From the NCBI GenBank assembly GCA_050633305.1, contig JBOEGF010000005.1, positions 160,001-224,000 of the forward strand: 64,000 nucleotides of DNA, read 5' to 3'. Every line of letters starts with the position of its first letter. The stretch's first letter is position 1. Below are positions 4,048-41,089 of this stretch, piece after piece. Origin of the DNA: Nannocystales bacterium. GTDB taxonomy: Bacteria; Myxococcota_A; Polyangia; Nannocystales; Nannocystaceae. Below the pieces are notes generated by a model that saw only the letters and a list, made by a program, of their open reading frames with translations, ran no database searches and was not told where the DNA came from. A program made the position numbers and the translations under genes.

Positions 4048-7000
4048 TCAGTACGACACGCTCTTCTTCCAGGCGCGGAGCTGAGAGAGTTCCGGCGCGC
4101 CCACATCGTTGGCCTCGGCGAACACCACCTCGACTTCCTCGATGAGCTCGCGGGCACCGTCGCGTTCGTCCTGATCCCACATCAGCTTCGCGAGCTCGAA
4201 CCGGGTGGCGTTGACCGTGAGCGGGTCGATGTCGAAAGCCGCAAAGATCTCGACGGACTCTTCGAGAAGCGCCCTCGCACGCTTCGGTTCCCCGATCTTG
4301 ATGTGGGCCACGCCGATGGCCGAGAGGGTTTGCGCGACGAAGGGGTGGTTGCGCCCCAATGCGTGCTCATCGATCTCGAGGCTGCGGCGCATCGCGTCGA
4401 GCGCACGCTCATGTTCGCCCTGCCGGAGCCGAACCGAGCCGAGGTTGAACCAGTGGCCGCTCGAGTCCGCTTGCATCGGTCCGAGCTCGGCCTCGATCAG
4501 CGCGATGGCTTGGACGAGGTTCGCCTCCGCCTTGTCGAAGTTGTCGGCCCGCATATGCGCGACGCCGAGGTTTCCGACGGGGCGAGCGAGATCAACGCCA
4601 TGGTGGTCTCCCGACTCGTACGCGCGGATCGATCGCTCGAACAGGACGATTGCCTCGGCGTCCTTGTTCAGGGAGAGGAGCGAGGTGCCCATGTTGTTCA
4701 AGGACATGGCGACGCGGATGTCGTCGGTGCCGTAGAGCGCGACCTCCGTCTCGTAGACTCGCCGGAAGTAGTCGTGCGAGGCTTGGTGGTCGCCGCGCAT
4801 TTGCTCGAGGTTGCCGAGGTTGTTGATGATCGAGATGTGCCGGTTGTTGAACCGGCCGACCTCGAGCTCGGTCTTGTCCATGGCGCTCTGGAAGGCGGTC
4901 TCTGCGGCGTCGAGTTCTCCGAGTTCGAGGCAGGCGATGCCGAAGTTGCTCTGGGCCTCGGCGTGGAGGAGTGGGTCGGGGTTCTCCAGACTCTCGTACA
5001 GCGCGAGGGTCTCCCGGAAGCGCTCGCGAGCGAGCTCGTAGTTGGTGTTGCGCAGCGCGACCAACCCCACCGTTCGGATGTGCTCGGCGCGTAGCGAGCC
5101 GGCATCGTCGCCGAGTCGTTCCACCGCGGCCTGGGCGAGTCGCTCCCATCGCTCGGCGAGCTTCGGGCGTGCCAAGCGGTAGCCGTAGGTCAGGTGCAAC
5201 TCCACGGCAATTCGTGCTGCGAGTCGGTCTTGGTGTGCGGTCTGAGCGGTGTGAAACGCCTGGTCGAGAAGCTTCGCCGCATCGACTCGAAGCCCCTGGG
5301 CGTCGAGGAGGTCCGCGCGGCGGTACTGCGCTTCGGCCAAGAGCGGCGCAAAGTCGAGAAGCTCCGCTTCGTGCAAGACTCGCGCGGTGACGTCGTCCGC
5401 ACGTTCATAGCGGTGCAGGCCGAGCAGGGGCGGGATGGTCGAAAGCTCTTCGGCGAGGCTCTCCACCCGATCTCGAATCTCCGGCGGCGCGGTCGCATGC
5501 TTGTCGGGCGCCGCCGCGTCGCAGGATGCGATGTTTGGTAGGGCCGACACGGCCTCCGGCGAGTTGCGCAACGTGAGTGCATCGCCCGTCGCGACGACCT
5601 CGACCAGCACGGAGAACTGTTCGAGCGCGCGATACAGACAGGTTCTCTGTGCGGCGCGTCGCTCTGGGGCTGCGTTGGCGGCCTCGCAGACTCGGACCCT
5701 CGAGGCCGACCACTCGTCCGCGAAGCTGGAGAGCTTTGCATCGAGTCGGGCATGTTCCGCATCGGGGTTGGAAATGCCAGACGCGTGGAAGGCGTCGCGG
5801 AGCTGCTCTCGTCGGTCGGCGTTCCAAACCGACGCCGCTTCCTCTTGCGTCGACGCGCAGGGGTCTGCGACGGGGACCACCGCCGCGAGAGCGACTCCCG
5901 AGCCCACGAGTCCGGCGACGACGAGCCCACCGACAGCACGCGGCCGGCTCCCGCCTCGACTGAGGGCACGCAGGAGTTCGTCCATGCTGGGCCAGCGAGC
6001 CTCGGCATCTCCGAGAAGGCCGCGAAGGATGACGGAGTGGATCCGCTTGGAGACGAGGGACCCACGCGGCGGGGGGCGGACATTCCCAGCGAGGATGTTC
6101 CGGACCTTCTGCTTGCTCCTGCGACCCAGGAATGGAACCTGGCCATAGAGCGCCTCGTACAGGGTCAAGCAGAAGCTGAACTGGTCGGTGCTCGGCGTCA
6201 CCGGCTCGCCCCGCATCTGCTCGGGCGACATGTACCGCGGCGTGCCGACGATCAACCGTTTGGGCGGGAGGATGTCGTCCGACGAGCTCCCTGTCCCCGT
6301 CGCGCCGGTTTGCGTCTCGGACCGGAACACGCGTCGCGCGATCCCAAAGTCCACCACGCGCACTCGGCCGTCCTCTCCGACCAGGATGTTGGTCGGCTTG
6401 AAGTCGCAGTGAACGAGCTCCACGGCGTGGGCGGAGGCCAAGCCCCGTCCGGCGGCCACCAAGACGTCGAGAATCTCAGAGACGGATCGTTCGGAGGCGT
6501 CGAGCCACGCCCGGAAGTTCTTCCCGCGGACCAGCTCCATCGCCATGTAGAGCCGTCCTTCTCGATCGTAGCCCACGTCGTACACCGGGACGACGTTGGG
6601 ATGGTTGAGACCCGCGAGGGACCGGGCTTCGGCGAGAAGGACCTGCTCTTCCTTGGGCTCACCGACGTCGAGGCGCATCACCTTCAACGCCACCCGGCGG
6701 TCGAGTTCGACGTCGCGGGCGGCATAGACGACGCTCATCCCACCGGCGCCAACCTGCTCCTCGAGTTCGTACCGGTCGAGCTCTGGACGGTCGAATGCCT
6801 CGGTGAGGCTGGCGCGAGCACTCGCGTTGACTGGCACGGTCGGCGAGGTGACATCCTCTTTCCGCTGTTGCGTGTCCGAGTCGTCGTCGAGTTCGTGCAC
6901 GGCCAGGTTCGAGGATACCGCGGCGAGCCGCCGCGGGGCGCTCGGCGGGTTGGCCTGGGGCGTGTCCCGGCGTCCGTCGCAATCGAAACACGACTCGCTT

Positions 7001-7065
7001 TCCGCGCCGGGGGGCTCGGATGGAGCGTCGGCGACGGGTCGACAGGGCAGCACCGCGGAGCGCAT
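4048..7065 (-). CDS. Membrane Ser/Thr protein kinase with C-terminal TPR repeats
   Basis: VGAGGMSVVY, VALK, HCDFKPTN, DFG, GTPRYMSPE, a TM segment, then repeated SLNNMG/NNLG TPR units; true start may be nearer 6900. Confidence 0.92.
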   Translation of the reverse strand: MRSAVLPCRPVADAPSEPPGAESESCFDCDGRRDTPQANPPSAPRRLAAVSSNLAVHELDDDSDTQQRKEDVTSPTVPVNASARASLTEAFDRPELDRYELEEQVGAGGMSVVYAARDVELDRRVALKVMRLDVGEPKEEQVLLAEARSLAGLNHPNVVPVYDVGYDREGRLYMAMELVRGKNFRAWLDASERSVSEILDVLVAAGRGLASAHAVELVHCDFKPTNILVGEDGRVRVVDFGIARRVFRSETQTGATGTGSSSDDILPPKRLIVGTPRYMSPEQMRGEPVTPSTDQFSFCLTLYEALYGQVPFLGRRSKQKVRNILAGNVRPPPRGSLVSKRIHSVILRGLLGDAEARWPSMDELLRALSRGGSRPRAVGGLVVAGLVGSGVALAAVVPVADPCASTQEEAASVWNADRREQLRDAFHASGISNPDAEHARLDAKLSSFADEWSASRVRVCEAANAAPERRAAQRTCLYRALEQFSVLVEVVATGDALTLRNSPEAVSALPNIASCDAAAPDKHATAPPEIRDRVESLAEELSTIPPLLGLHRYERADDVTARVLHEAELLDFAPLLAEAQYRRADLLDAQGLRVDAAKLLDQAFHTAQTAHQDRLAARIAVELHLTYGYRLARPKLAERWERLAQAAVERLGDDAGSLRAEHIRTVGLVALRNTNYELARERFRETLALYESLENPDPLLHAEAQSNFGIACLELGELDAAETAFQSAMDKTELEVGRFNNRHISIINNLGNLEQMRGDHQASHDYFRRVYETEVALYGTDDIRVAMSLNNMGTSLLSLNKDAEAIVLFERSIRAYESGDHHGVDLARPVGNLGVAHMRADNFDKAEANLVQAIALIEAELGPMQADSSGHWFNLGSVRLRQGEHERALDAMRRSLEIDEHALGRNHPFVAQTLSAIGVAHIKIGEPKRARALLEESVEIFAAFDIDPLTVNATRFELAKLMWDQDERDGARELIEEVEVVFAEANDVGAPELSQLRAWKKSVSY

Positions 7066-7212
7066 CGACAGCTTCGCGCCGGACTTGAGCGAATTCAGCC
7101 GCCGATCCGCGCGGATGTTGGATGTTGCGATCCGGTTCCCCGGGTGCGGTTGCTTGGCGTGCGCTGACCCTGGCGGGCAGGTACGCGTGACGGGTTCACC
7201 CCGCAGCGCCCT

Positions 7213-7566
7213 CTACGCGAGTACGCGATGGAGCAGTCCGTCGAAGTCGTTCGCGGACTCGAGTGGCCCGCCGAGCGAGGCGATGACGAAGCTGCGCTCG
7301 CCAACGCTCAGGCGGTGCGTGAACACGCCCGCCGTGGACCAGCCGTGCTCATCGCAGGGGCTCGCCACGTTGTGTCCTGCGTTGGCAGCGGAGCCGACTG
7401 CGGCAAGCACTTCGAGATCCTCGTCGCCGACACCGCCGAGCAGCATGCCCTCGTCCGATGCGACGACCGCGGCGCGCACTCCGGGGCTGCCCGCGTTCTT
7501 CGCGAGGAAGATTCGGATGGCGCGGCTGGGGTCTTCGCTGCGAAGGACACGTCGCTCGGTCTGCAT
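7213..7566 (-). CDS. Small Roadblock/LC7-like (MglB-fold-like) protein
   Basis: 117 aa from ATG 7566; GVRAAVVASDEGMLLG...LAAVGS pattern resembles the roadblock beta-hairpin and helix. Confidence 0.5.
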   Translation of the reverse strand: MQTERRVLRSEDPSRAIRIFLAKNAGSPGVRAAVVASDEGMLLGGVGDEDLEVLAAVGSAANAGHNVASPCDEHGWSTAGVFTHRLSVGERSFVIASLGGPLESANDFDGLLHRVLA

Positions 7567-7708
7567 TGGCAGCAGCTTGCCGCATCGGGCCGATGTCGCG
7601 AAAAAACCGACATCTGGCAGATCACGCGCTGCGAGACCTCCGCTGATCTTTTCCTTCAAGTCCGCGCATGTTCCGGGCGATTCGGCTGCGAGGAGCAACG
7701 GATTCACG

Positions 7709-8104
7709 ATGGCGTTTTTGGATTGGACCGGAGTGTCGCAGGTCGGCGTGCAAACCATGGATCTCGAGCACGGGTTGCTCGTGAAGCAGATGAACGATCT
7801 GCACGCTCACTGGACCGCGGACGCGCCGCGCCCCATCGTCGGGCGTGCGCTCCAGGTCCTGTACGACGGGACCCTGTCTCACTTCCGGCATGAAGAAGCC
7901 CACATGCGGCAGCATCGGCACTCTGGATACGACGCGCACTGTCGGATCCATCGAGAGCTGTTGCAGACGCTCACCCGTTTTCGCGATGCCTTCGTCAAGG
8001 ACGGTTCGACGCTCGACCAGGAATTCTTCGACTTCCTCAGAGTGTGGCTGTCGAGTCACATCCTCGACGTCGATGCGGGATACGCCGACGCACTCGCGGC
8101 ATGA
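7709..8104 (+). CDS. Bacteriohemerythrin
   Basis: W...VGV..MDLEH, HFRHEE, HCRIH and WLSSHILDVD: complete hemerythrin di-iron ligand set; GAGGAG upstream of ATG 7709. Confidence 0.92.
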   Translation: MAFLDWTGVSQVGVQTMDLEHGLLVKQMNDLHAHWTADAPRPIVGRALQVLYDGTLSHFRHEEAHMRQHRHSGYDAHCRIHRELLQTLTRFRDAFVKDGSTLDQEFFDFLRVWLSSHILDVDAGYADALAA

Positions 8105-27189: not shown

Positions 27190-28076
27190 TCCACCTCGAA
27201 CTCGAGGACCAACAGGCCGGGAACCTCGCCCGACCGCGCGTGTTCTCGGGCGTCGAACGCGTACAACGTGCCCCCGGAGCGCGCGAGTGCGTCGGTTCCT
27301 TGGAGTGCCGTGGCCTCGAAGTTCACCGCAGCCGCGTCACAGGCCGAAAAAAGCTCGGCGTACACACGGTAGCGGCCTGGCGGTGGTTCGACTTGCCACA
27401 CCACATTCTCCCGGTTGCGCAGGTCCAGCGTGCACTGCTGGTTTGAGTCGTAGTCGTGGTAGCCACCCAGTGTCGCTCCATCGGGCGGCGGCTGGACGCC
27501 GGGTGTGGGCTCGAACGCGTTGATGTTCTTCGCCCCTACGATCACGCCCGAGGGCAGCTCGACATGGAGGTCGAGGTCGACGGGTGCGTCCCAGCCCAAC
27601 GACACCAACAGTTCCGACGGCGGCACATCCGACTGCAGCTCGAACGTTGCGACGGTGATCGCACCGGCTCGGCCATCTTCGTCGACGGCCTGGAGCTCGA
27701 CCTCGAGGGTGTCGGATTCGATCGCGTGGGAGAACTCGAGTTCGGTGCCGAAGAGGAGCTCGTCCGCGATCACGAAGTCGAACCCCGATGGTGCGACTTG
27801 CCAGTGGTTGTCATCGCCGACGCCGTGCACCAGCAGGGACACCCCTCCGGAGCCCAGCCGGCCGCCCAGTTGCACGGTGCCCTCGCCACGACGGACCCCG
27901 ATCTGCGGAGTCAGCACTTGGGTGACCGAGGGACCACCTTGCTGTGGCGGGAGGCCTCCACGCTGCAGCTGAGCCTCGTGGACACGCAGCCGCAGGTCAA
28001 GGCCCATGCCGGGGAGCGAAGGGCTCTCGTTGCACGAGAGCGCCAGCAGAGACAGGGCCGCGGCAAGCCTTTGCAT
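27186..28076 (-). CDS. Lipoprotein with YfaP/DUF2135-like domain
   Basis: ATG 28076 overlaps the upstream stop; LALSC lipobox; LVSLGWDAPVDLDLHVELPSG, ENVVW, PPGRYRV. Confidence 0.7.
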   Translation of the reverse strand: MQRLAAALSLLALSCNESPSLPGMGLDLRLRVHEAQLQRGGLPPQQGGPSVTQVLTPQIGVRRGEGTVQLGGRLGSGGVSLLVHGVGDDNHWQVAPSGFDFVIADELLFGTELEFSHAIESDTLEVELQAVDEDGRAGAITVATFELQSDVPPSELLVSLGWDAPVDLDLHVELPSGVIVGAKNINAFEPTPGVQPPPDGATLGGYHDYDSNQQCTLDLRNRENVVWQVEPPPGRYRVYAELFSACDAAAVNFEATALQGTDALARSGGTLYAFDAREHARSGEVPGLLVLEFEVE

Positions 28077-29650
28077 CAAAACACGACCTCCGCCCGAATG
28101 CGAAACGTGTCGTTGTCGAGCTTGGCGGGGCGGCCGTTCGAGTCTCGGCCGAGGTCGTTGTCGAGCTGCCATTCGTATTCGACGAGCAGCCGGGCCCGGA
28201 TGCGGTCGTCGTGCCGAAGATAGCCCGAGACCCCCGAGGACAAGGTCCGAAAATGCTGCCGGGTGATCACCACCGTTCCGTCGTACGGCTCCAAGGCGTC
28301 GAGGTTGGGCCGGTACTCGTCGTAGCGCACGCCCACTCCCGCATGGCGGGTCAGCGCTTGAACGAACCCGGCATACCATCCGATGCCGCGCTGGTCCCGG
28401 CCGAGCAAGACCGGATCGGCGACGGCGATGCCGCGGTCGACGTTCTGAAGCACCGCGAACTCACCGTACAAGAGCAACGGTCCGAGTTTGGGGATGTCGC
28501 TGCGAAGCTGGACGTCGGTCCCGATCGCCCATCGCTCGAAGTTCTCTGAGGGACGCCCCGCGCTCCCCGGGATCGGGATGAGCTCGGCCACCGTGACGCG
28601 GCCGTCCTCGTTGAGGTCCGTCCACTCGAAGTCGTCTTTGGTCGGAGGCGTGCCCGCCGAGAAGCCCCGTCCCCGTAGGAACGAAAACCCCATCGCGCCA
28701 TCGAGCCACGCGAAGAGGTCTCCACGTAGGTGGAGGCGCCCGACCACATCCTTGCCGCGGTTGGGGTCGCGGAAACCGTAACCGGGGGCACCGGTGGGCT
28801 GCCCGTTGTAGATGCCGACCACCCAGTCCAGCGCCCACACGTGGCCGGAGAGGGACGCGCCCGCATCGAAGACGCCGGGGACCAGCGCGTCCGAGACGAG
28901 TGTCCGCTCGCCAAAGAAGCGACCGCCATCGGTCTCCCCGTACAGCTCATAGCCAAAGGGAACGCGGAGCAGACCCGCGGAGAGTTTCAGCCACGGAGGC
29001 GCACCGTCGGGCGCGGGGAGATGGGCGTGCACGTCGGCGGTCAGCGGACGAACCGCACCCCCCGCGCTGAAGAACTCGGCGACGCCGCGGACACCAAAGT
29101 ACTTCCAGTCCGCCTCTCCGCCGATCCGGGCGTTGCGAAGGAGGAATGCGTTCTCGTTGAGAGGCTCGGACGACCCATCGGAGAGCTGGTCCTCCGAGCG
29201 CTGGCGCAGCAACATGTCGACCTGGACCAAGCCGAACACACGGGTGTGTGGCTTCCAGGACTCGGGGGTCGCTTTCGCAGAAGCAGCGGCCGAGGAAGAC
29301 TCTTCGGGGACCGTTCTGTCCACCTGTGCCGCCGCTGTTTCGGCGTCGGAGGTGGACGCCACGGACGCGCCCGCAGGGGAGACGGTTTCCGCTTCGTCGA
29401 CGGTTTCCGCTGCGTCGACGATTTCCGCTTCGTCGACGGTTTCGATTTCGTCGACGGTTTCGATTTCGTCGACGGTTTCGATTTCGTCGACGGTTTCGAT
29501 TTCGTCGACGGTTTCGATTTCGTCGACGGTTTCGATTTCGTCGACGGTTTCGATTTCGTCGACGGTTTCAGGCGGGGCCGCGTATGCGGCCGCAGGGCGT
29601 CCCAAGACGAACGCGACCGCCAGCGGCCCGAGCCTGAAACCGACGCTCAT
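28076..29650 (-). CDS. Outer-membrane porin (OprO/OprP-like) with acidic N-terminal repeats and EF-hand-like loop
   Basis: Signal peptide; FLLRNARI, GLLRVPFGYE, YNGQ...DPNRGKDVVGRL, C-terminal Phe (RAEVVF). Confidence 0.7.
   Translation of the reverse strand: MSVGFRLGPLAVAFVLGRPAAAYAAPPETVDEIETVDEIETVDEIETVDEIETVDEIETVDEIETVDEIETVDEAEIVDAAETVDEAETVSPAGASVASTSDAETAAAQVDRTVPEESSSAAASAKATPESWKPHTRVFGLVQVDMLLRQRSEDQLSDGSSEPLNENAFLLRNARIGGEADWKYFGVRGVAEFFSAGGAVRPLTADVHAHLPAPDGAPPWLKLSAGLLRVPFGYELYGETDGGRFFGERTLVSDALVPGVFDAGASLSGHVWALDWVVGIYNGQPTGAPGYGFRDPNRGKDVVGRLHLRGDLFAWLDGAMGFSFLRGRGFSAGTPPTKDDFEWTDLNEDGRVTVAELIPIPGSAGRPSENFERWAIGTDVQLRSDIPKLGPLLLYGEFAVLQNVDRGIAVADPVLLGRDQRGIGWYAGFVQALTRHAGVGVRYDEYRPNLDALEPYDGTVVITRQHFRTLSSGVSGYLRHDDRIRARLLVEYEWQLDNDLGRDSNGRPAKLDNDTFRIRAEVVF
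29381..29569. repeat. 18-bp tandem repeat (TTCGTCGACGGTTTCGAT) inside the porin gene, encoding (ETVDEI)7 plus degenerate copies
   Basis: Seven perfect copies and about three diverged copies read directly from the sequence. Confidence 0.95.
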
Positions 29651-31336: not shown

Positions 31337-32266
31337 ATGCGACGTCGGGAATTGCTGCAGAGCCTCGTGGCGGCACCCTGCCTACTGAGTGGGTGCTCCA
31401 AGGGGTCCACATCGCTGCGGTTCTCGGGCATCCCCGACGGCGACAAAGAGGCGCTCAAAGAAGGGTATGCCGCCGTCGCCCGGTACTTGTCATCTGCGTT
31501 GAAGGTTCCTGTTGAGCCGGTGCATGTGCCGGACTACACGGCCGCTGTCACATCGTTGGCATCCGGCGGCATCGACTTTGCTTGGCTCGGCGGCGTGACG
31601 ACGGTTCAAGCCGAGCAGCGGACGCCGGGGGGGGTGCACTTCGTCGCGGCCCGCGAGAGCGACCTCCACTTCAAGAGCTACTTCATCGCAAACGCCAAGG
31701 TCGCGGAGGGAGCCGGTCTGTCTCCGGTCGCGGTGCGTGAGGCCGGGACCCTCGGGGACTTGACCGCCGTGGCGAAGGCCATGAAGGGCAAGCGGTTCAG
31801 CTTCGGCTCGAAGAGCTCGACGTCGGGTCATGTGATGCCGCGGTCGTTCCTCTTGGATCCGTCCGTGGGGGTCGACCCCGAGTCCCACTTTCTCGACGGT
31901 CCCATGTACCAGCGTCAAGGGGGACACGCGGCAACGCTTCGGGCGGTGGCCTCGGGCGCGGTGGACTTCGGGGTGCTGAACTTCGCAAGCTGGGAACGCG
32001 CGGACCCGCAGTTGCAATCCGACGCCCCTGTGGTCGCGGTGACCCCTGAGTATGTCGACTACTGTCTGGTGGCTCGGGGCTCGATGCCTGCGGCCCAGGT
32101 CGATGCGTTGAGGACGGCATTGACCGCGCTCGATGCCGGGGTGCCGGAGCAGGCCGCGGTGTTGGAAGCGTTCGCTGCCAAGGAGTTCGTGAGCGCCGAC
32201 GCGAAGGCATGGGACAGCATCCGCGGCGTCCTCACCAAGCTCGAGGCCGAAGGCGCGCTTCGGTGA
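31337..32266 (+). CDS. PhnD-family ABC substrate-binding lipoprotein resembling the putative selenate clade
   Basis: MRRRELL...LSGC (Tat-like lipoprotein); FSGIPD, DYTAAV, WLGGVTTVQA, FKSYFIAN, FSFGSKSSTSGHVMP, GHAATL. Confidence 0.85.
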   Translation: MRRRELLQSLVAAPCLLSGCSKGSTSLRFSGIPDGDKEALKEGYAAVARYLSSALKVPVEPVHVPDYTAAVTSLASGGIDFAWLGGVTTVQAEQRTPGGVHFVAARESDLHFKSYFIANAKVAEGAGLSPVAVREAGTLGDLTAVAKAMKGKRFSFGSKSSTSGHVMPRSFLLDPSVGVDPESHFLDGPMYQRQGGHAATLRAVASGAVDFGVLNFASWERADPQLQSDAPVVAVTPEYVDYCLVARGSMPAAQVDALRTALTALDAGVPEQAAVLEAFAAKEFVSADAKAWDSIRGVLTKLEAEGALR

Positions 32267-33015
32267 GCCCTGCGGTCGAGCTGGAGAGGGCCTCGGTGCG
32301 CTACCCGGACGGGCGCGGCATCGAGGACCTGACGGCTCGACTCGAGTCCGGACGAACCGTCGCGCTGGTTGGCCCATCGGGGGCCGGAAAGAGCACGCTG
32401 CTGCGGCTCATCGCGGGCGCGGTCGCACCGGATGCTGGCCACGTGCGCACGCTCGGCCAATCTATCGCCCAGTTGCGGGGAGCGTCGTACCGAGCGGCTT
32501 GTGACCGGGTGGGGCTGTTGGCGCAAGCCGACGACCTGGCACCGGGGCTTAGCGTCTTGCACAACGTCTTGGCTGGCCGACTGGGCCGATGGTCGATCGC
32601 GCGGGCCCTCCGCAATCGTGTCTGGCCGCGCACCGATGATCGCCGGGCTGTAGAAGCGGCGTTGGCTGCGGCCGAACTCGCCGATCGCATCGACGCCGAT
32701 CCGTCCGAACTCTCGGGCGGCGAACGGCGCCGCGTCGCGCTGGCTCGGTTGGCGTTTCAGGCCCCGACGATCTGGCTTGCCGACGAGCCCACCACCGGGC
32801 TGGATGTCCGGCTTCGCGGCGACATGATGGACCTGTTGCTGACGATGGTGCGCGGGGCCAAGGCTACGGCGGTCGTTGCCCTGCACGACCTCGAGCTGCT
32901 CCGCTGCGGCTTCGATGAGGTCTGGGGGCTGCGCGGTGGAGGTCTGGAGTTTGCGCTTCCCGCCGAGAAAGTCTCGAAAGCACGGCTTGCGGCGTTGTTT
33001 GGGAGCACGGCATGA
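32263..33015 (+). CDS. ABC ATP-binding subunit (PhnC-like)
   Basis: GPSGAGKS, HNVLAGRLG, LSGGE, LADEP, ALHD; GTG overlaps the upstream stop. Confidence 0.92.
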   Translation: MSPAVELERASVRYPDGRGIEDLTARLESGRTVALVGPSGAGKSTLLRLIAGAVAPDAGHVRTLGQSIAQLRGASYRAACDRVGLLAQADDLAPGLSVLHNVLAGRLGRWSIARALRNRVWPRTDDRRAVEAALAAAELADRIDADPSELSGGERRRVALARLAFQAPTIWLADEPTTGLDVRLRGDMMDLLLTMVRGAKATAVVALHDLELLRCGFDEVWGLRGGGLEFALPAEKVSKARLAALFGSTA

Positions 33016-34595
33016 ACCGAAAGGCCACCGTGGCCGTCGCGGTTGCGGCGGTCACGTTCATCATCGTGCTCTCCCTCGACTTCGGCGTGACGCATCCCGG
33101 GAATGCGCTCGAAGCCGTCGCGTCCCTTCTCGCGGGCATGGGCCAGCCCGACCTTCGTCCGCAGACCTTGCTGCGTGTCTCGGAGCTTGCGGCACAGACG
33201 ATCGCCGTCGCGGTGCTGGGGACCGGGTTGGGTGCTGGGCTCGGTCTGATGTTGGCCATGGTGGGGGCGACTGCCAGTGTCGGAGGCCACCGGGCTCCGG
33301 GGCGCCGAGTCTTGGCAGAGGTGTTGCGGCTGGGGCTCGACGGCCTACGAGCGATTCCCGATTTCGCCTGGGCACTCGCGCTACTCGTGGTGCTGGGCCC
33401 CGGTCCTCTCACCGGAACATTCGCGATCGCGGTGTCCGTGACCGGCATCTTGGGTCGTGCGTTCGGCCAGCTCCTCGAGTCCGTGCCTGAACACAAGGTG
33501 CAAGGAGTTGAGCGCCTGGCCGGGTCACCGATGGCGGCGGTGATTTACGGTCGCCTGCCACACATCGCACCCGCGGCGTGGTCCTACGGTCTGGCGCGCC
33601 TAGAATGCTCGATCCGAAACGCGTCTGTGATCGGAATCGTCGGCGGCGGCGGGCTCGGTGCGGAGCTGTTCGAGGAACTCGGATACGGGCGCATGGATCG
33701 GGTGGCCACGCTGTTGATGGGCCTGGTCATCCTGACGGCGGTAGCCGACGTCGGGTCCGGAATGCTGCGTCGCGGCTTGGGCGGGGTGGGTCTTCGAGCC
33801 CGTCGCTCTGCGCTGCATGCGGCGCTTCTGGTGTCTGCCGCGAGCCTGGCCTGGCTGACTCCCGCGGCGTTCGAGCTCATCGATGCGCTCGCGCGTCTCG
33901 ACCTCCGAGTGGCTGCGGCTTCCGGTGCCCGCCTTCTTCAACCCGACCTCTCGAGACAAACGCTCGGTGAAGTCTTCCGGGGTGTCGGGGCTCCGGTGGG
34001 GCTGGCCTGGCTGTCGATGGGTGCCGCCACTGGCGTCGCGTTGATGTTCCTGCCCTGGACCAGCACGGGGGTCCGGCGACGGGCCCACGGAGTCGCGGCG
34101 TCTGATTCGAGGCTTGCTGTGTTCATCGCGTGGCTGCTGCGGGGATTGGCGCTGCTGGCCCGAGCGGTACCCGAAGTTGCCTGGCTGTTGCTCTTCGCCG
34201 CCGCGCTGGGCATGGGGCCGTTGCCCGCCGTGCTGGCGTTGGGACTGCATGCGTCCGGAATCCTGGTTCGTCTGTTCACCGAAGCGGTGGACGACCGGTT
34301 CGGGACGGCTCCGCACCGGGGCATCGGTGCTGGTGCGGGGGTTGGCTGGCTTGTCTACGCGGCCCTTCCCCGACTGCGTGGCACCCTCGCCACACACACG
34401 GCCCTGCAGGCGGAGTCCAACCTTCGTTCCGCGTTCACACTCGGAATCCTCGGCGCCGGCGGCTTGGGCAACGCGTTTCATAGCGCGATTAGCTACTGGC
34501 AGCTCGAGCGCGCATCGACTCTCGCACTGGGGATGCTGGTGTTGTTTGTCGGGCTCGACCGCGCGGGGCGTCGGTTGTCGCGCCTTGTGGGTTGA
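33012..34595 (+). CDS. ABC permease with two fused PhnE-like domains
   Basis: RAIPDFAWAL...GPGP...RLECSIRNASVIGIVGGGGLG, repeated as RAVPEVAWLL...ESNLRSAFTLGILGAGGLG. Confidence 0.88.
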   Translation: MNRKATVAVAVAAVTFIIVLSLDFGVTHPGNALEAVASLLAGMGQPDLRPQTLLRVSELAAQTIAVAVLGTGLGAGLGLMLAMVGATASVGGHRAPGRRVLAEVLRLGLDGLRAIPDFAWALALLVVLGPGPLTGTFAIAVSVTGILGRAFGQLLESVPEHKVQGVERLAGSPMAAVIYGRLPHIAPAAWSYGLARLECSIRNASVIGIVGGGGLGAELFEELGYGRMDRVATLLMGLVILTAVADVGSGMLRRGLGGVGLRARRSALHAALLVSAASLAWLTPAAFELIDALARLDLRVAAASGARLLQPDLSRQTLGEVFRGVGAPVGLAWLSMGAATGVALMFLPWTSTGVRRRAHGVAASDSRLAVFIAWLLRGLALLARAVPEVAWLLLFAAALGMGPLPAVLALGLHASGILVRLFTEAVDDRFGTAPHRGIGAGAGVGWLVYAALPRLRGTLATHTALQAESNLRSAFTLGILGAGGLGNAFHSAISYWQLERASTLALGMLVLFVGLDRAGRRLSRLVG

Positions 34596-34819
34596 ACCGG
34601 ACAACTCTGCGTGGAAAATGTCCTCTGGACGTCGATAAAGGGTCTGTTGACCTTAAAAGTGTGGAGGTCGCTTTGACTCTCCGCTCTGGGCATTCATGGT
34701 GGGGCTGACACTAAACTGGAAAATCACGAGATATCGCTGAAAAACGTTGCTCAAGAAACCCTCCAACGGCTCGAGGAAGGCGGAGTCCGCACGGATGTCA
34801 GCGGCCGGATGGTGAGGCA

Positions 34820-36655
34820 CTACGGTGCAAGCAGGCGGTCGATGGTCATGACCATCGCGTCTGCATCGAACTCCCGGCGCAGGTAGGCGATGGTGCCGTC
34901 TCGGTCGACAATGACGTCGAGCGGAAACGGGCTGATCGCATTGTCCGGGTCCGCGTAGTCGAAGTATGTGGTGTCGTCGCGCAGGATCGGAAAGCTGACG
35001 CCGGTTTGACCGACGAACCCGGCCAAGGTGGAGGCGGACTCATTGCCGAACAGGCCAGGGCCGCTGAGGCCCAGCACGACGACTTCGCTTTCGGGGTACT
35101 GCTGGCGGATGCGAGTTTCGAGTTCTGGAAACTCCAGAACGCAGACGGGTCAGAAGGTGGCGAAGTAGGCCAGCACGGCCACCTTTCCTTCGAGGTCCGC
35201 GTGAGTCCAGGTGTTCCCTTCGAGGTCTCGCAGCGCGAAGGACGGGGCAGGGTCGCCGACGGCAAGTCCGGGGACGTTCGCGGTCAGGGGGACTTCGAGG
35301 CGAGGTTCGTCGGGGTCGTCGCTGCAGACCCGAATCGCGCTTTGGAGCGACGCGGATGAACCCGGGCTGAGCTGGACTTCGACTGCTTTGGAGCGACCTG
35401 GTTCGACGACGAAGCACGTCTCGTCCACCGTGACGTCGGCGGACCCTGTCACATCGTGGACCGTCAGCGGGCGGGTGCCGCTGTTGGAGATGAGCAAGAC
35501 GCGGGCATCTGAGTCCGATGGTTGAACGTTGCCGAACTGCAGTGAGCTCGGGCTGAGGTCGACCTCGGGTCCTGCTGAGGCGCTGTAGGCGAATGCGTGG
35601 AGGCCGGTCCACTCTCCGCCAAACACCCTGGCCCGTGCTGCGACAGCGCCGACGGCCAGGACCCGGGAGAAGCTGTCGTCGGTGGGGACGGTCTCCGAGA
35701 ACAGGGAAACCGGGTCGGCGGGTTCGGTGAAGTCGTAGCCGCGCAAAGAGTCCCATTGCGCGACGACGATCTGTCGGGGACCCAGCAAGGCCACATCGAG
35801 CGCGGTTCCCGAGACGGGTTGCTCGGCCAGGAGAGCGGCTGCGCTGGTGTCGGCGACGTCCACGATGCTGATACCACTGGAGGTGACGACGTACGCCCTG
35901 TCGTCCTCGAGCAGCACATCGTGACTCGAGCCCTGAAGCGCTACGGTGGAGAGCAATCGGGGGTCGCGCTCCGACACGTCGAACAGGCGCAGACCGGAGC
36001 CTCCATCGGCCAGCGCGAGCAGGTCGTCCCGCAAGACGGGCTGCCATGCGTCGGTGCCTTCCTCCACCACTCGACCGGTCTCGACCACGTCTCCGTCGGC
36101 AAGCTCCAGCGCGACCAGACCATGTCCGTGCAGGGCGGCGAAGATCCGGTTCCCCCGAATCGCGACACCTTCGATCGAGCCCGAGACTGGACTCCAGCTG
36201 CCGAGGAGTTGTGGCCGACTCGGATCCGCGAGGTTGTAGATCGCGAGCCACGGGGTCGGCTGAACTTCATCTCCGCGGTTGGTGATGACGACCCGGGAGG
36301 TGTCAGGATCGAAGCCGACATGCTGGCAACGGGGAAACTGGCTGTTGGAGAGGCCGGCGCCCGGAGAGACGCGTTCGACCAACAGTTGTGGGACCTCTTG
36401 GGATGTGTCGAAGACCGAGAATCCTCGCACTCCGCTGCAGACGAGGGCGAGGTCGCCGTGGGCGAGGATGTCGGTGATCTCGAAGAAGGTGTTCGTGTTG
36501 GCGCGACCCAGGTGTTGCAAGGGGTCGACGGTCGCTCCGGGCGAGGTTGGGCACCCAGGCCGGGCCGCAGACCGACACAGAGCTGGGGCGGCGGGGTCGG
36601 GCTCGACGGCACAGCCGACCAGAGCGAAGAGCGACAGCAGGGTTCGGGCGTTCAT
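34820..36655 (-). CDS. Selenoprotein B: lipoprotein with LVIVD-repeat propeller + Ig-like domain + C-terminal UxxC redoxin (TlpA/AhpC-TSA-like); Sec codon TGA at 35152-35150; 611 aa
   Basis: ORFs 35150..36655 and 34820..35077 share a frame; read-through gives ...VAVLAYFATF-U-PVCVLEFPELETRIRQQYPESEVVVLGLS...ISPFPLDVIVDRDG; LVGC lipobox; downstream hairpin. Confidence 0.88.
35122..35140 (-). promoter_or_regulatory. Bacterial SECIS-like stem-loop of selenoprotein B
   Basis: mRNA: UGA + 9 nt + GUUCUGGA-GUU-UCCAGAAC (8-bp perfect stem, G-first loop 17 nt after UGA). Confidence 0.8.
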
Positions 36656-38580
36656 TCGTCGAGCAGCTGTTGAAGGGTGGTGTCCATGGCCTCGACGTCG
36701 AACTCGCGACGTAGGTACCGAATGGTTCCCGTGCGGTCCAAGATGACGTCGAGGGGGTAGGGGGAAATGGCGGCGTCGGAGAATGCAAGTTGACCCCGAG
36801 TCGTGTCCTGCATCAACAGTGGAAACGTGACCTGTGTCTGTTCGCGAAACGCGGACACGGTCGACTCTGATTCACCGCCGAACAGACCCGCGCCGGACAT
36901 GCCGAGCACGACCAGGTCGTCGCGGTGGTTGTAGCGCTGCCAGAGCTTGGTCTCGATGTCTGGAAACTCCAGACTGCAGACGGGTCAGAAGGTGGCGAAG
37001 TACGCCAGGAGGACGACCTTCCCCTCGAGGTCGGCGCGTGTCCAATCGTTGCCGTCGATGTCCTGCAGCATGAAGTCCGGCATCGGATCTCCGATGTCGG
37101 CCCCCGCTGCATTGCCATTGAATCGCAGCTCGTACTCGGGCTCGTCCGGGTCGTCGGTCTGCAACAGAAGCGAGCCGGAGGTGACGTCGTCAGAGTCCGG
37201 GGCGAACCGGAGCTCCAGGGCGTGCACACCTCCGGGGTCGACGGTGAAACACGCGTCGTCGACGGAAACGGTGTCGCGCTCCGTGGTGTACCCGTAGACG
37301 TTGAGCGGCTGGTCGCCTTCGTTGCGGACCACCACGACGCGGTCTTCGGTGTCCCCTGCTTCGATACGTCCAAACTGGACCGAGGCCGGGGCAGCCGCGA
37401 TCTCCGGCCCGGTGGCGCGAGCTTGGCTCTCGAACATGTGCATCCCGGTCCACTCGCCCGCGTACAGGCGCGGCATCTCCGGGTGGGGGGCGAGCGTCAG
37501 GACGCGAGAGAAGTCGTCTCCGGTTGGCACGACCTCCGACCACACGCGGGTGAGCTCGTTCGGTTCGTACGCCCGGACCTCGTCCCACTCGGCGCTGTAC
37601 ACGAGGCCGTTTGCGCCCAGTGCGATGGCGACCGAGGTGCCCGCGGCGGGAGCCTGGGCGGCGACGGCAGGCACCGATGGATCGGTGACGTCGAGTCGAA
37701 CGACGGAGGACGACGCGGCGACGTAGAGGGCATCGTCGTCGAGGACCAAGTCTCGACTCGAGCCGCCGAGTGCCAGCGTGCTGAGCAGGACAGGGTCGTC
37801 GCCCGAGACGTCGTACACCCGAACACCGGTCGCGCCTTCGGCGACGTAGAGGAGGCCGCCCGCGAAGACAGGGAGCCAAGCGTCCGACGCGTCGTCGGCG
37901 AACGAACCCACCTGTTCGAGCACTTCGCCGCCGGTGTCTTCGAATACGAGCACGCCAGCTGTGTGCGCGGCTGCGAAGATTCGGTCTCCGTCCCACACCA
38001 CGCCCTCGATGGACGCATCACCCGTCCACCCGCGCAGGGCGATCGGCTCTTCACGATCTTCGACGTTGTACACGTGCAGCCAAGGCTGGGGCTGAACCTC
38101 GTCACCCCGGTTGGTGATCGCGGCTCGCCGTCCTTCGGCGTCGAGGGCAACGTGTTGGCAGCGCGGGAACTGCCGGTTGGAAACCCCCGGCGGTCCGATG
38201 CGGGCGGAGACCAATGTGCCTGCGTCGTTGGAAACGTCCCACGTCATCATGCCCTGGGTGGCGGTGCAGCCGTAGACCAGCTCGCCCCGAGCTTCGAGGT
38301 CGAGGATCTCAATGAAGGTGCCGCTCTCGGCGCGGCCGCGGTGCACGAGTCCGTCGACGGTGGTGATGGGATCGGGGGCTGGACAAGCGGGTGGTGCGTC
38401 GCCACTGCTGTCGTCGGCCCCGGAGCTTCCGGTCATTCCGCCGGTCTGCGGGGTACTCGTTGCGGGGCTCGTGTCGCTTGGGCGGTCTGTACCTCCCACC
38501 GGCGCGGCGTTGCCGTCGCTGGGCCCTTGGCAGCCCGCCGCGGCGGCGCCGAGGACCGCGCTCAACACTCCAAAACGCAT
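36652..38580 (-). CDS. Selenoprotein A: paralogous lipoprotein with LVIVD propeller + Ig-like domain + UxxC redoxin; Sec codon TGA at 36987-36985; about 642 aa
   Basis: ORFs 36985..38592 and 36652..36909 share a frame; read-through gives ...VVLLAYFATF-U-PVCSLEFPDIETKLWQRYNHRDDLVVLGMS...ISPYPLDVILDRTG; AAGC lipobox; final stop overlaps the ATG of gene B. Confidence 0.88.
36958..36974 (-). promoter_or_regulatory. Bacterial SECIS-like stem-loop of selenoprotein A
   Basis: mRNA: UGA + 10 nt + GUCUGGA-GUU-UCCAGAC (7-bp perfect stem; same loop and same loop distance as copy B). Confidence 0.8.
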
Positions 38581-38699
38581 GTTGCTGAGCAATACGGGGT
38601 CGGAGGACCCAGGTTACGTCGGGAGGGAGGACACCCGTACAGGTGCTCCAGTTCCCCAGTCCCTTGGGGCGGCCGGCCTGGCTCGCTACTGTGGTGCAG

Positions 38700-39488
38700 A
38701 TGAGAAGGACCTCCGTGGGCCTCGCCCTTGTCGTGGCCGCTGCGCCTTCGTGGGCCCTGGCGAAAGACCCCCCGCCCAAGCCGCTTCGAGCCTCGCTCGA
38801 GGTCGAGGCGGGTGAGGCCGAGGACGGCAAGGAACTCGAGGAACGCGTGAACACGGCGCTCGGAGCTCGACTCCGCAAAGCCGAAGTGTTGCCACGAAAA
38901 TCGTTGGAGGATGGCCTCATCCACGTGGAGGTGAGCCCGCTGCCCGATGGCGACGGTTACCACTACGACGTCTACGCAGAGCAGGCGGACCGAACGCTCG
39001 CAGAGACGAAGACCGAGGCCGACTGTGCGGGGTGTGATGAGGCGGCCCTGCTCGAGGCCATCGGGGTGGCCGTCGACAAGTGTCTGCCTCCGCTGGCGGC
39101 GAGCGTCGCCGAGGCGGTGGTTGAGCCCGAGGAACCCCCTGCGGCATCTGTGGCGGTCACGCCCGTGCAGAGCTCCCCGTCCGACGAGGACCGCCGGGCA
39201 GGACCGCTGGGAAAAGCTGGCATCGGGCTGATGGTTGCGGGCGCCGCGACAGCCGTGGTTGGGGTCATCTTCGTTGTGAACGGGCGTTCGTTTGACACCC
39301 GCCCCGGCGCGCTGGAGCAGGAAGGGGTCGATTTTCGCCCGCCAGGCTTCGCGTTGCTGGCCGGCGGCGTGGCGACGTTGATCACAGGAGGTGTCCTGTA
39401 CGGAGTCGACCGCAAGCGGCGGAAAAGGAAGGCCAGCGTGTCGTGGATCCCCGGGGGTGCGGCGGCGTCGATCGGAGGGCGATTCTAG
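38700..39488 (+). CDS. Hypothetical exported protein with C-terminal hydrophobic helices
   Basis: Signal peptide, CAGC, two Gly-rich hydrophobic segments, C-terminal GGRF typical of myxobacterial PEGA/TPR-associated proteins. Confidence 0.7.
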   Translation: MRRTSVGLALVVAAAPSWALAKDPPPKPLRASLEVEAGEAEDGKELEERVNTALGARLRKAEVLPRKSLEDGLIHVEVSPLPDGDGYHYDVYAEQADRTLAETKTEADCAGCDEAALLEAIGVAVDKCLPPLAASVAEAVVEPEEPPAASVAVTPVQSSPSDEDRRAGPLGKAGIGLMVAGAATAVVGVIFVVNGRSFDTRPGALEQEGVDFRPPGFALLAGGVATLITGGVLYGVDRKRRKRKASVSWIPGGAAASIGGRF

Positions 39489-41089
39489 TGGCTCACTCCC
39501 GCCTCTTGGTGTTCGGCGCGGTGTTGCTCGCGATGGCCGCAGGCTGCCCCTTCTCTTTCACCAACGACGACCACTGCGCGGCCCAGGCTGGCGACGCGAC
39601 CTGTGCAGCCGCGAACGCGGCGACCCCGTACTGCGCGCTCGATGGGTGCGGGCTGTATGACGAGGCCGACAACATCAGCGGGTGCGTGGCCGAGCTACCC
39701 ACCGACCTGTCCTGCTACAGCCCGTGTGGCGGCAAGCAAGACGCCAACGCACAGAGCGACTGCGATGCGCCCGCGACGGAGGCGACCAGCGTCTCCTCGT
39801 CGTCGGACACAGATACGCTGACGTCCGGATCCGCTTCGACCGACGCATCGGGCACCGAGACGGACTCGTGCGCGTGCGAGGGCGACACGCCGATCTGCGT
39901 GGATGGGGAGTGTGTGGCCTGTGTCGACGATGACGCCTGTGCCCAGGCGGGGCTGCCATCGATCTGCGATGACGGACGATGTGTCGAATGCCAGCCGATG
40001 CAGGCAGACATCGCCGCGGAGGACGAATCGATAGACGGCCGTCAGTCGTATCACCAGGGCTGCTCCATCAGCGCACCGAACTGCAACACGGGTGCTTGTG
40101 TCGGGCAGTGTTTGTTCCACGACGATTGTCCTGGGAGCGGCTGTGACTTCTCGACCGGACTGTGCGGTCCCCTCGACACGCGCTTCTACGTCGACGAGAC
40201 CGCGGGTGCCGATGACCCGGAGGCTTCGGGCTCCCAAGGAGCGCCGTTTGCGACGGTCGGGTTCGCAGTCGAGCGCGTCGCGGAGGCCTCCGGCATGGGG
40301 ACGGCGATCGTGACCGTGGTCGTGTCCGAGGGGAACTACCTTGGCCCGATTGAGACCGGCGCTCGAACTGTGATCGTCATCGCCGACCCCGACGGGGACA
40401 GGCCTCAGTTCAGCGCCCCGGACGAAACGGCGGACGCGGATCCTGTCTTTGTGGTCGACGCCGACAACGCTGTCCTGTCCTTGGGCAGCGTTCGTGTCGC
40501 GAACTCGGAGCTCGTTGTTCGTGTCGCGTCGACCGGGCAGTTCTTCGGCGACGGCGTGGAGATGGTGGACAACAACTCCGCCGTGCGGCTGGAGGGGGCG
40601 GCGGGATTCGTGCGGAACTCGTTGGTGACGGGGAGCTCGGAGCCTCCCTTCGTCCTCGCGCCGAATGGTGAGCTTGGGGTCATCACGACGACCATCGTGG
40701 AGAATGCAGCGACGATTCTGTTCGAGTGCGAGGACCCAAAGGAGTTCAACCGAATCTCCCTGGCATACAGCATCGCTGGTCAGTTCGATCCTCTGCCCAA
40801 GGGGTGGTCCGTGCTCAGCCCATCGTGCGCGTTTGCTCCCGGGTATCCGGTGATCGAGGACAACGCGGTGGAGGTCGTGCCCGGTGAGGACTCGTTCGCG
40901 ACGGGCACGTTGTTCCGCCTCGACACCAACGCCTCAGAGGCCTACCGGGCCGACGAGCGGCCGGAGGCCTGTGCCGAGGGAACGCCGACCGTGGATGAGG
41001 GCTTCCTGCTGCCGTGCCCTCCGGACCGAGACGTCGACGGTGTCTTGCGGCCCGACGCGTACTGGCGAGGGTTCAGCGCAAACCCGTAA
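39488..41089 (+). CDS. Cys-rich lipoprotein with DUF1565/beta-helix-like C-terminal domain
   Basis: AAGC lipobox; Cys repeats; FYVD...GSQGAPFATVGFAV...VSEGNY is a DUF1565-like start of a beta-helix. Confidence 0.7.
   Translation: MAHSRLLVFGAVLLAMAAGCPFSFTNDDHCAAQAGDATCAAANAATPYCALDGCGLYDEADNISGCVAELPTDLSCYSPCGGKQDANAQSDCDAPATEATSVSSSSDTDTLTSGSASTDASGTETDSCACEGDTPICVDGECVACVDDDACAQAGLPSICDDGRCVECQPMQADIAAEDESIDGRQSYHQGCSISAPNCNTGACVGQCLFHDDCPGSGCDFSTGLCGPLDTRFYVDETAGADDPEASGSQGAPFATVGFAVERVAEASGMGTAIVTVVVSEGNYLGPIETGARTVIVIADPDGDRPQFSAPDETADADPVFVVDADNAVLSLGSVRVANSELVVRVASTGQFFGDGVEMVDNNSAVRLEGAAGFVRNSLVTGSSEPPFVLAPNGELGVITTTIVENAATILFECEDPKEFNRISLAYSIAGQFDPLPKGWSVLSPSCAFAPGYPVIEDNAVEVVPGEDSFATGTLFRLDTNASEAYRADERPEACAEGTPTVDEGFLLPCPPDRDVDGVLRPDAYWRGFSANP

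Follow-up and report, generated by a model that had tools for sequence, protein, structure and literature searches.

Tandem genes for predicted selenocysteine-containing lipoproteins that join a beta-propeller, an Ig-like domain and a redoxin in a Nannocystales bacterium

Introduction

When two adjacent bacterial genes both break off at a TGA codon within a recognizable redox active site, is that codon a stop or is it read as selenocysteine (Sec, U)? The question is raised by two genes, here called A and B, on the minus strand of a 64 000-nucleotide stretch of a Nannocystales bacterium (assembly GCA_050633305.1, contig JBOEGF010000005.1, positions 160 001–224 000). This whole stretch is referred to as the window, and coordinates without a further label are those of the window. 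A first-pass annotation, made from the letters alone, had proposed that A and B encode exported, lipid-anchored selenoenzymes in which an LVIVD propeller and an immunoglobulin (Ig)-like domain carry a redoxin with a UxxC motif. The comparisons of sequence, codon use and RNA structure presented below indicate that the in-frame TGA codons of A and B are almost certainly read as Sec.

The in-frame TGA codons and the downstream hairpin

Under translation table 11 the minus strand of the locus carries four open reading frames (ORFs). The two longer ORFs, of 535/531 amino acids (aa) for A and 501 aa for B, both stop at the sequence YFATF-TGA, the TGA being at 36985–36987 in A and at 35150–35152 in B. 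The two shorter ORFs, of 85 aa each (36652–36909 and 34820–35077), continue these frames and are the C-termini of A and B. When TGA is translated as Sec, gene A (36652–38580, minus) encodes 642 aa with Sec at position 532, and gene B (34820–36655, minus) encodes 611 aa with Sec at position 502 and ends at TAG. The stop TGA of A then overlaps the ATG of B in an ATGA at 36655–36652. The shared stop, the two orphan ORFs and the overlap upon read-through had all been claimed by the first-pass annotation, and each was seen at the locus. The two products are paralogues, with 47.6% identity over 584 aa.

Read-through yields a complete redoxin domain, as had been claimed. AhpC-TSA (PF00578) is the best Pfam match of the two read-through domains (E = 2e-15 and 3e-14; 57 and 53.5 bits against a cut-off of 26) and Redoxin (PF08534) also scores above its cut-off of 26.6 (45.8 and 45.3 bits), both over the full length. 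The active-site motif is YFATF-U-PV-C, with Sec532 and Sec502 at the first position of UPVC. In an alignment with ResA-like proteins of solved structure, the TGA of both genes falls on the first Cys of CxxC, which agrees with the proposal that it stands at the first Cys of a TlpA-type motif.

Each TGA is followed by a hairpin resembling a bacterial Sec insertion sequence (SECIS). The hairpin of A (36958–36974, minus) has a 6-bp stem and that of B (35122–35140, minus) a 7-bp stem; in both, the loop AGUUU begins 16 nt past the TGA, and the calculated stabilities are −10.1 and −10.7 kcal/mol. Stem, loop, spacing and energy all agree with the bacterial consensus of a 4–16 bp stem, a 3–9 nt loop with a G in the first two places, a distance of 16–37 nt from the UGA and a minimum free energy of −7.5 or lower (PMC13188914).

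The hairpin was compared with synonymous re-codings of the same sequence. In a first set of homologues it was exceptionally stable in 16/16 TGA copies and in 0/3 TGC copies. In a larger set of full-length copies, with one copy cut by a locus end dropped and ten redoxin hits that were short or unrelated tallied separately, this was so for 39/44 TGA copies and 0/7 TGC copies (P ≤ 0.05). In an alignment of 15 TGA copies, pairing holds in 92.4% of cells, two-sided changes occur in five of the seven pairs, and the score is 0.47, compared with no more than 0.13 for slid controls; the structure used was derived from one of the 15 sequences, and its outermost pair fails in eight of them. A consensus-fitting hairpin was found after TGA copies only and was absent from Cys copies. 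A scan of positions 34000–39500 against Rfam gave three chance matches below the gathering score and no match to a SECIS model, and a promoter and terminator scan gave nothing exceeding shuffled sequences.

The genome (11.0 Mb, 92% complete, 65.9% GC) contains selA, selB, selD and a tRNA-Sec with the anticodon TCA, so that all four of the Sec genes looked for were found; its selD carries an in-frame TGA of its own. TGA is also the commonest stop codon, terminating 1883 of the 3258 long ORFs that pass a coding filter, and a reading of TGA as tryptophan (code 4) was therefore ruled out. Among these 1883 ORFs, only two have, past the TGA, an xxC together with 80 or more open codons and a hairpin with a G in its loop: gene A and a paralogue on contig C18. 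Gene B is not in this listing and was probably removed by the coding filter. Because just two of 1883 ORFs have this combination and both belong to the family, the arrangement exceeds chance expectation. The C18 gene (∼114236–115990, or 6237–7991 of locus L007) is a third, distant paralogue with a UTAC motif and its own covarying hairpin. A genome-wide scan for UxxC or CxxU with a hairpin gave 123 candidates, mostly noise. Judged by eye, five of them are further likely selenoprotein genes, at C10:198930(−), C12:126089(−), C16:88701(−), C20:61257(+) and C32:274059(+), which we take to be Prx (peroxiredoxin)-like, AhpD-like, arsenate-reductase-like, redoxin and DsbA-like.

Spread of the family and the residue at the TGA site

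A first search gave matches in 13 of 40 relatives. A 17-sequence profile gave 81 matches in 47 of 301 sampled Myxococcota genomes, with up to four per genome. Exactly one TGA interrupts 73 of these matches; five have no stop, although two of the five do not reach the site, and three show other stop patterns. Among 75 distinct full-length members (88 rows less 13 duplicates cut at the stop), the site is occupied by TGA in 64 and by Cys in 11, and by nothing else. The Cys homologues expected of a true selenoprotein family thus exist. Four of the full-length Cys members came from a profile search of cluster representatives, the results of which were dominated by long repeat proteins. Two Cys members, L072 and L074 (genomes G323 and G225), have CPMA at the active site and so lack the resolving Cys.

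In 8/8 pairs, conservation is higher past the TGA than in the 300 codons that precede it (uncorrected pN/pS 0.23–0.52), and a pseudogene is therefore rejected. On an unrooted FastTree phylogeny, five changes between Sec and Cys are needed, and copies of the A type branch separately from those of the B type. Genomes G003, G005 and G014 retain the A–B tandem, the two genes there overlapping or lying 2 nt apart, and G159 has another tandem pair. At L028 (465–2582; G001:C385) the N-terminus of A is fused to B with most of A missing in frame, by deletion or assembly artefact. At L037 (G011:C170) a change of frame splits a homologue between its propeller–Ig and redoxin parts.

Standard pipelines had been expected to break these genes, and they do: 64 of 66 database homologues end at YFAT[FWY], or 62 of 64 when A and B themselves are excluded. 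The homologues that carry a name are called ‘hypothetical’ or ‘DUF1573’, and the full-length Cys forms ‘redoxin domain-containing’ or ‘peroxiredoxin’.

Domain architecture

Protein A begins with a lipoprotein signal (Cys17) and a low-complexity Ser/Thr/Gly linker, followed by a propeller (residues ∼74–391, 37408–38361, placed by alignment to B), an Ig-like domain (residues 397–490, 37111–37392) and the redoxin (residues 496–642, 36655–37095). Protein B has the same order, with its lipoprotein Cys at position 15. Its seven-bladed beta-propeller (residues ∼43–360, 35576–36529) includes Cys73 and Cys110. The Ig-like domain of B (residues ∼363–461, 35273–35569) matches PF22544 above its cut-off and NF012200 (choice-of-anchor D) at 47.8 bits, the cut-off being 45. 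The ResA/TlpA-like redoxin of B (residues 466–611, 34823–35260) contains U502-x-x-C505, Glu508 and a loop with Pro578. All of these segments are encoded on the minus strand.

The AlphaFold2 model of full-length B (pLDDT 88.4, pTM 0.85) has 28 strands within residues 46–357, an Ig sandwich and a thioredoxin fold. Together with the Pfam matches, this prediction supports the Ig-like and redoxin domains that had been proposed. The LVIVD propeller of the first-pass annotation stood in part. The structure model contains a seven-bladed propeller, but the LVIVD Pfam model matched neither A nor B at E ≤ 0.05; PF08309, which we take to be LVIVD, is precomputed on 48 of the 66 database homologues. Compared with solved folds, the B propeller resembles seven-bladed WD40-type proteins (Z 30–33, rmsd 2.2–3.5 over 270–307 residues), with no standout. 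The phosphotriesterase 5hrm/5ioj was considered as a relative and set aside; it tied with WD40 proteins in the fold search, and no enzymatic link is therefore claimed.

Of the 75 full-length members, 54 have both Cys73 and Cys110 and 21 have neither; none has only one of the two, and the pair most likely forms a structural disulfide. Several other propeller residues are kept among the same members: E59 (50), R109 (53), E162 (58), H176 (49), W301 (55), W349 (67) and also W204, the range being 45–67 of 75. Because of their place at strand ends, and from the general topology of propellers, these residues probably share one face. In the redoxin, the resolving Cys is kept in 73/75 members, and Glu508 and Pro578 in 70/75 and 68/75 of the rows reaching them. 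The Ig domain has no conserved Cys (at most 12/75 members).

A lipoprotein-like signal, scored by a simple rule of a hydrophobic stretch and a lipobox Cys, is typical of the family (52 of 64 members, compared with 45 of 373 neighbouring control ORFs). This agrees with the lipid anchoring that had been claimed, and the products of A and B are very probably exported and lipidated at the N-terminal Cys.

Genomic neighbourhood

Across 60 family loci, the recurring neighbour clusters, named by eye, were kinases at 8 loci, ECF-type sigma factors at 7 and sensor kinases at 6. Specific neighbours that recur are limited to other redoxins, as stand-alone genes at 10 loci and as tandem paralogues at 5. 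Several of the stand-alone redoxins carry a TGA themselves, and at L041, L042, L045 and L107 distant Cys-type members adjoin stand-alone redoxin genes with an active-site TGA. No cytochrome c maturation genes were seen as recurring neighbours.

Gene B is faced in the window by a converging PhnD/C/E-like ABC transporter (31337–34595, plus), whose binding protein has its highest score, 197 bits with a cut-off of 250, on TIGR04553 (‘putative selenate ABC transporter’). The transporter is not syntenic, being absent beside the family in relatives. Also in the window, a 524-aa ORF (28076–29650, minus) has about ten tandem six-residue acidic repeats near its N-terminus and no NCBIfam match. Near the third paralogue lies a 1474-aa ORF (L007 318–4742, minus), which by eye is Rhs/YD-repeat-like.

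Discussion

We favour a reading in which A and B are Sec-decoded thiol-disulfide reductases of the envelope, fed by DsbD, with the propeller choosing the substrates; as a whole this is probable rather than secure. The two genes would form a translationally coupled operon that arose by an old duplication. The UGA is almost certainly decoded as Sec by SelB, which binds the hairpin lying 16 nt downstream, and each exported protein would then present a propeller, an Ig spacer and a redoxin in the envelope. The propeller would recruit a substrate, and the selenolate at position 502 would attack its disulfide or oxidized Cys. Cys505 would resolve the mixed bond, and the resulting selenenyl-sulfide would be re-reduced by DsbD, which the genome encodes. 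Dithiol chemistry of the ResA type is suggested because the resolving Cys, the Glu after it and the loop with Pro are all conserved, and we lean, by a little, towards such a ResA/TlpA-like cycle of attack by Sec502, resolution by Cys505 and re-reduction by DsbD.

Several observations weigh against this reading. The DsbD gene is unlinked to A and B, and none of the 60 family loci offers a conserved neighbour that would indicate a substrate or pathway. Five of the 44 TGA copies fail the hairpin stability test. In favour of Sec decoding, selA occurs in 46/46 other carriers, compared with 191/301 sampled genomes overall, but kin are not independent, so the counts overstate the significance. In the first set of relatives, the incomplete carriers G001, G014 and G025 (71–83% complete) have no selA match; a TGA-bearing selD is present in 3/3 of them, selB exceeds its cut-off in 2/3 and tRNA-Sec in 1/3. 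Finally, those Cys forms that have a genome handle occur in genomes that retain selA, which means that not every copy depends on Sec.

An intramolecular relay like that of SOQ1 is unlikely, though it accounts for some of the conservation described above. The Sec redoxin would reduce the propeller residues Cys73 and Cys110, and the propeller face would be the true catalytic site, for example in the repair of oxidized Met or Cys in envelope proteins. The strict co-occurrence of the two Cys beside conserved polar residues is consistent with this, and SOQ1 and NHLRC2 offer partial models: SOQ1 is reported to move electrons from a thioredoxin (Trx)-like domain to a second domain with methionine sulfoxide reductase (Msr) activity, and in NHLRC2 a cleft lying between the Trx domain and the propeller is reported to be conserved. 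However, 21 of the 64 Sec members retain UxxC but have neither Cys, the best structural matches of the propeller are generic, tied WD40-type folds, and the second Cys pair of SOQ1 sits in its C-terminal domain, whereas no Cys is conserved in the Ig domain of this family. An extended version is equally doubtful: multi-copy envelope selenoenzymes found throughout the Myxococcota, independent in origin from SOQ1 and NHLRC2, in which the Sec redoxin would feed the propeller-face Cys pair and a polar pocket, making each a two-site enzyme with a redox chemistry of its own, and the targets would be surface proteins of the cell or its prey.

A surface-anchored peroxide-scavenging selenoenzyme, Prx-like or glutathione peroxidase (GPx)-like, with the propeller and Ig domain as adhesin or scaffold, would fit PF00578 as the best Pfam match, the weak matches to peroxiredoxin models and the stand-alone redoxins near the gene at 10/60 loci. 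LVIVD domains (bioRxiv 2022.05.06.490989) and choice-of-anchor D domains have likewise been described in surface proteins. Nevertheless, the peroxidatic motif of true peroxiredoxins, PxxxTxxU/C, is absent from A and B, and the best NCBIfam and PDB matches are dithiol reductases of the ResA type, so this alternative too has little probability. That TGA is a real stop, whether in pseudogenes or split genes, as a programmed two-protein output or as a codon read as Trp, is very improbable: annotations do end there, Sec read-through is generally inefficient and truncated propeller–Ig products may well arise too, but termination there would truncate the thioredoxin fold at the active site, purifying selection persists past the TGA, the hairpin tracks the codon, the stop-free homologues always have Cys at the aligned position, and TGA as the commonest genomic stop excludes code 4.

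The family is a large, well-supported and apparently uncatalogued group of predicted selenoproteins, held in databases as truncated hypothetical proteins, and it points to extensive use of Sec in exported proteins among myxobacterial relatives. The Nannocystaceae are aerobes. According to a 2026 review, selenoproteins are rarely retained by aerobic bacteria (PMC13188914). How Sec is inserted into a secreted protein could be studied with the family's naturally occurring Sec/Cys pairs and its compact, covarying SECIS. The rules of recoding and of thioredoxin chemistry are left unchanged.

Comparison with known systems

The first-pass annotation had known of no characterized family with this architecture. 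A literature search found no description of the family and no paper pairing LVIVD with Sec, although BSepDB and supplements may hold some of the genes. The available main texts of PMC12013277 and PMC13326102 contain no mention of LVIVD, propeller or redoxin, and in the available text of PMC13188914 both ‘propeller’ and ‘LVIVD’ are absent and none of the 119 families names such a fusion. Lipoprotein selenoproteins truncated in databases have been described (bioRxiv 2022.07.06.499078) and provide a precedent for both export and mis-annotation.

The redoxin domain comes close to the extracytoplasmic thiol-disulfide oxidoreductases ResA, TlpA and DsbE, and its nearest relatives of solved structure are ResA and TlpA-like proteins. 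The best PDB match is 4nmu (E = 2.5e-10) and the best NCBIfam match NF002854, and the position of CxxC is conserved, as are the Glu behind it and the loop with Pro. Unlike these proteins, A and B have Sec for Cys, are predicted lipoproteins and have two extra domains, and they score only 55.6 and 56.3 bits on NF002854, the equivalog cut-off of which is 170. None of the selenoprotein models in NCBIfam is matched above its cut-off, and the architecture is absent from that collection. Two Sec-containing models show weak similarity and have other Sec motifs: NF041054 (ResA-like WAxxUGC) to the redoxin (at most 18.6 bits, cut-off 300) and NF041425 (OS_HP2) to the Ig domain (far under the cut-off of 100 bits). 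NF053656 had no match in the genome, and its control was also silent.

NHLRC2 and SOQ1 likewise unite three modules of these kinds in a single chain, and SOQ1 is reported to act outside the cytosol too. Their order is Trx–NHL–C-terminal domain (CTD) rather than propeller–Ig–redoxin, no Sec is reported in them, and neither is among the listed fold matches of B; the likeness is an analogy from shared folds.

Redoxins with UxxC are already catalogued. Table 1 of PMC13188914 lists as predicted selenoproteins a ‘Prx-like thiol:disulfide oxidoreductase’ (PF00578, UxxC), a ‘Redoxin family protein’ (PF08534, UxxC) and a ‘Thiol-disulfide isomerase-like’ entry (cd02966, UxxC). These share with A and B the fold, Pfam families over cut-off, the UxxC motif and the type of SECIS; what sets A and B apart is a redoxin that makes up the C-terminal quarter of a 600-aa lipoprotein. 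Prx-like selenoproteins have been reported in other fusions too (PMC2398784), and fusion alone is therefore no novelty. Therefore, what seems to be new is just the architecture and the family, both apparently uncatalogued, within a known kind of UxxC redoxin selenoprotein.

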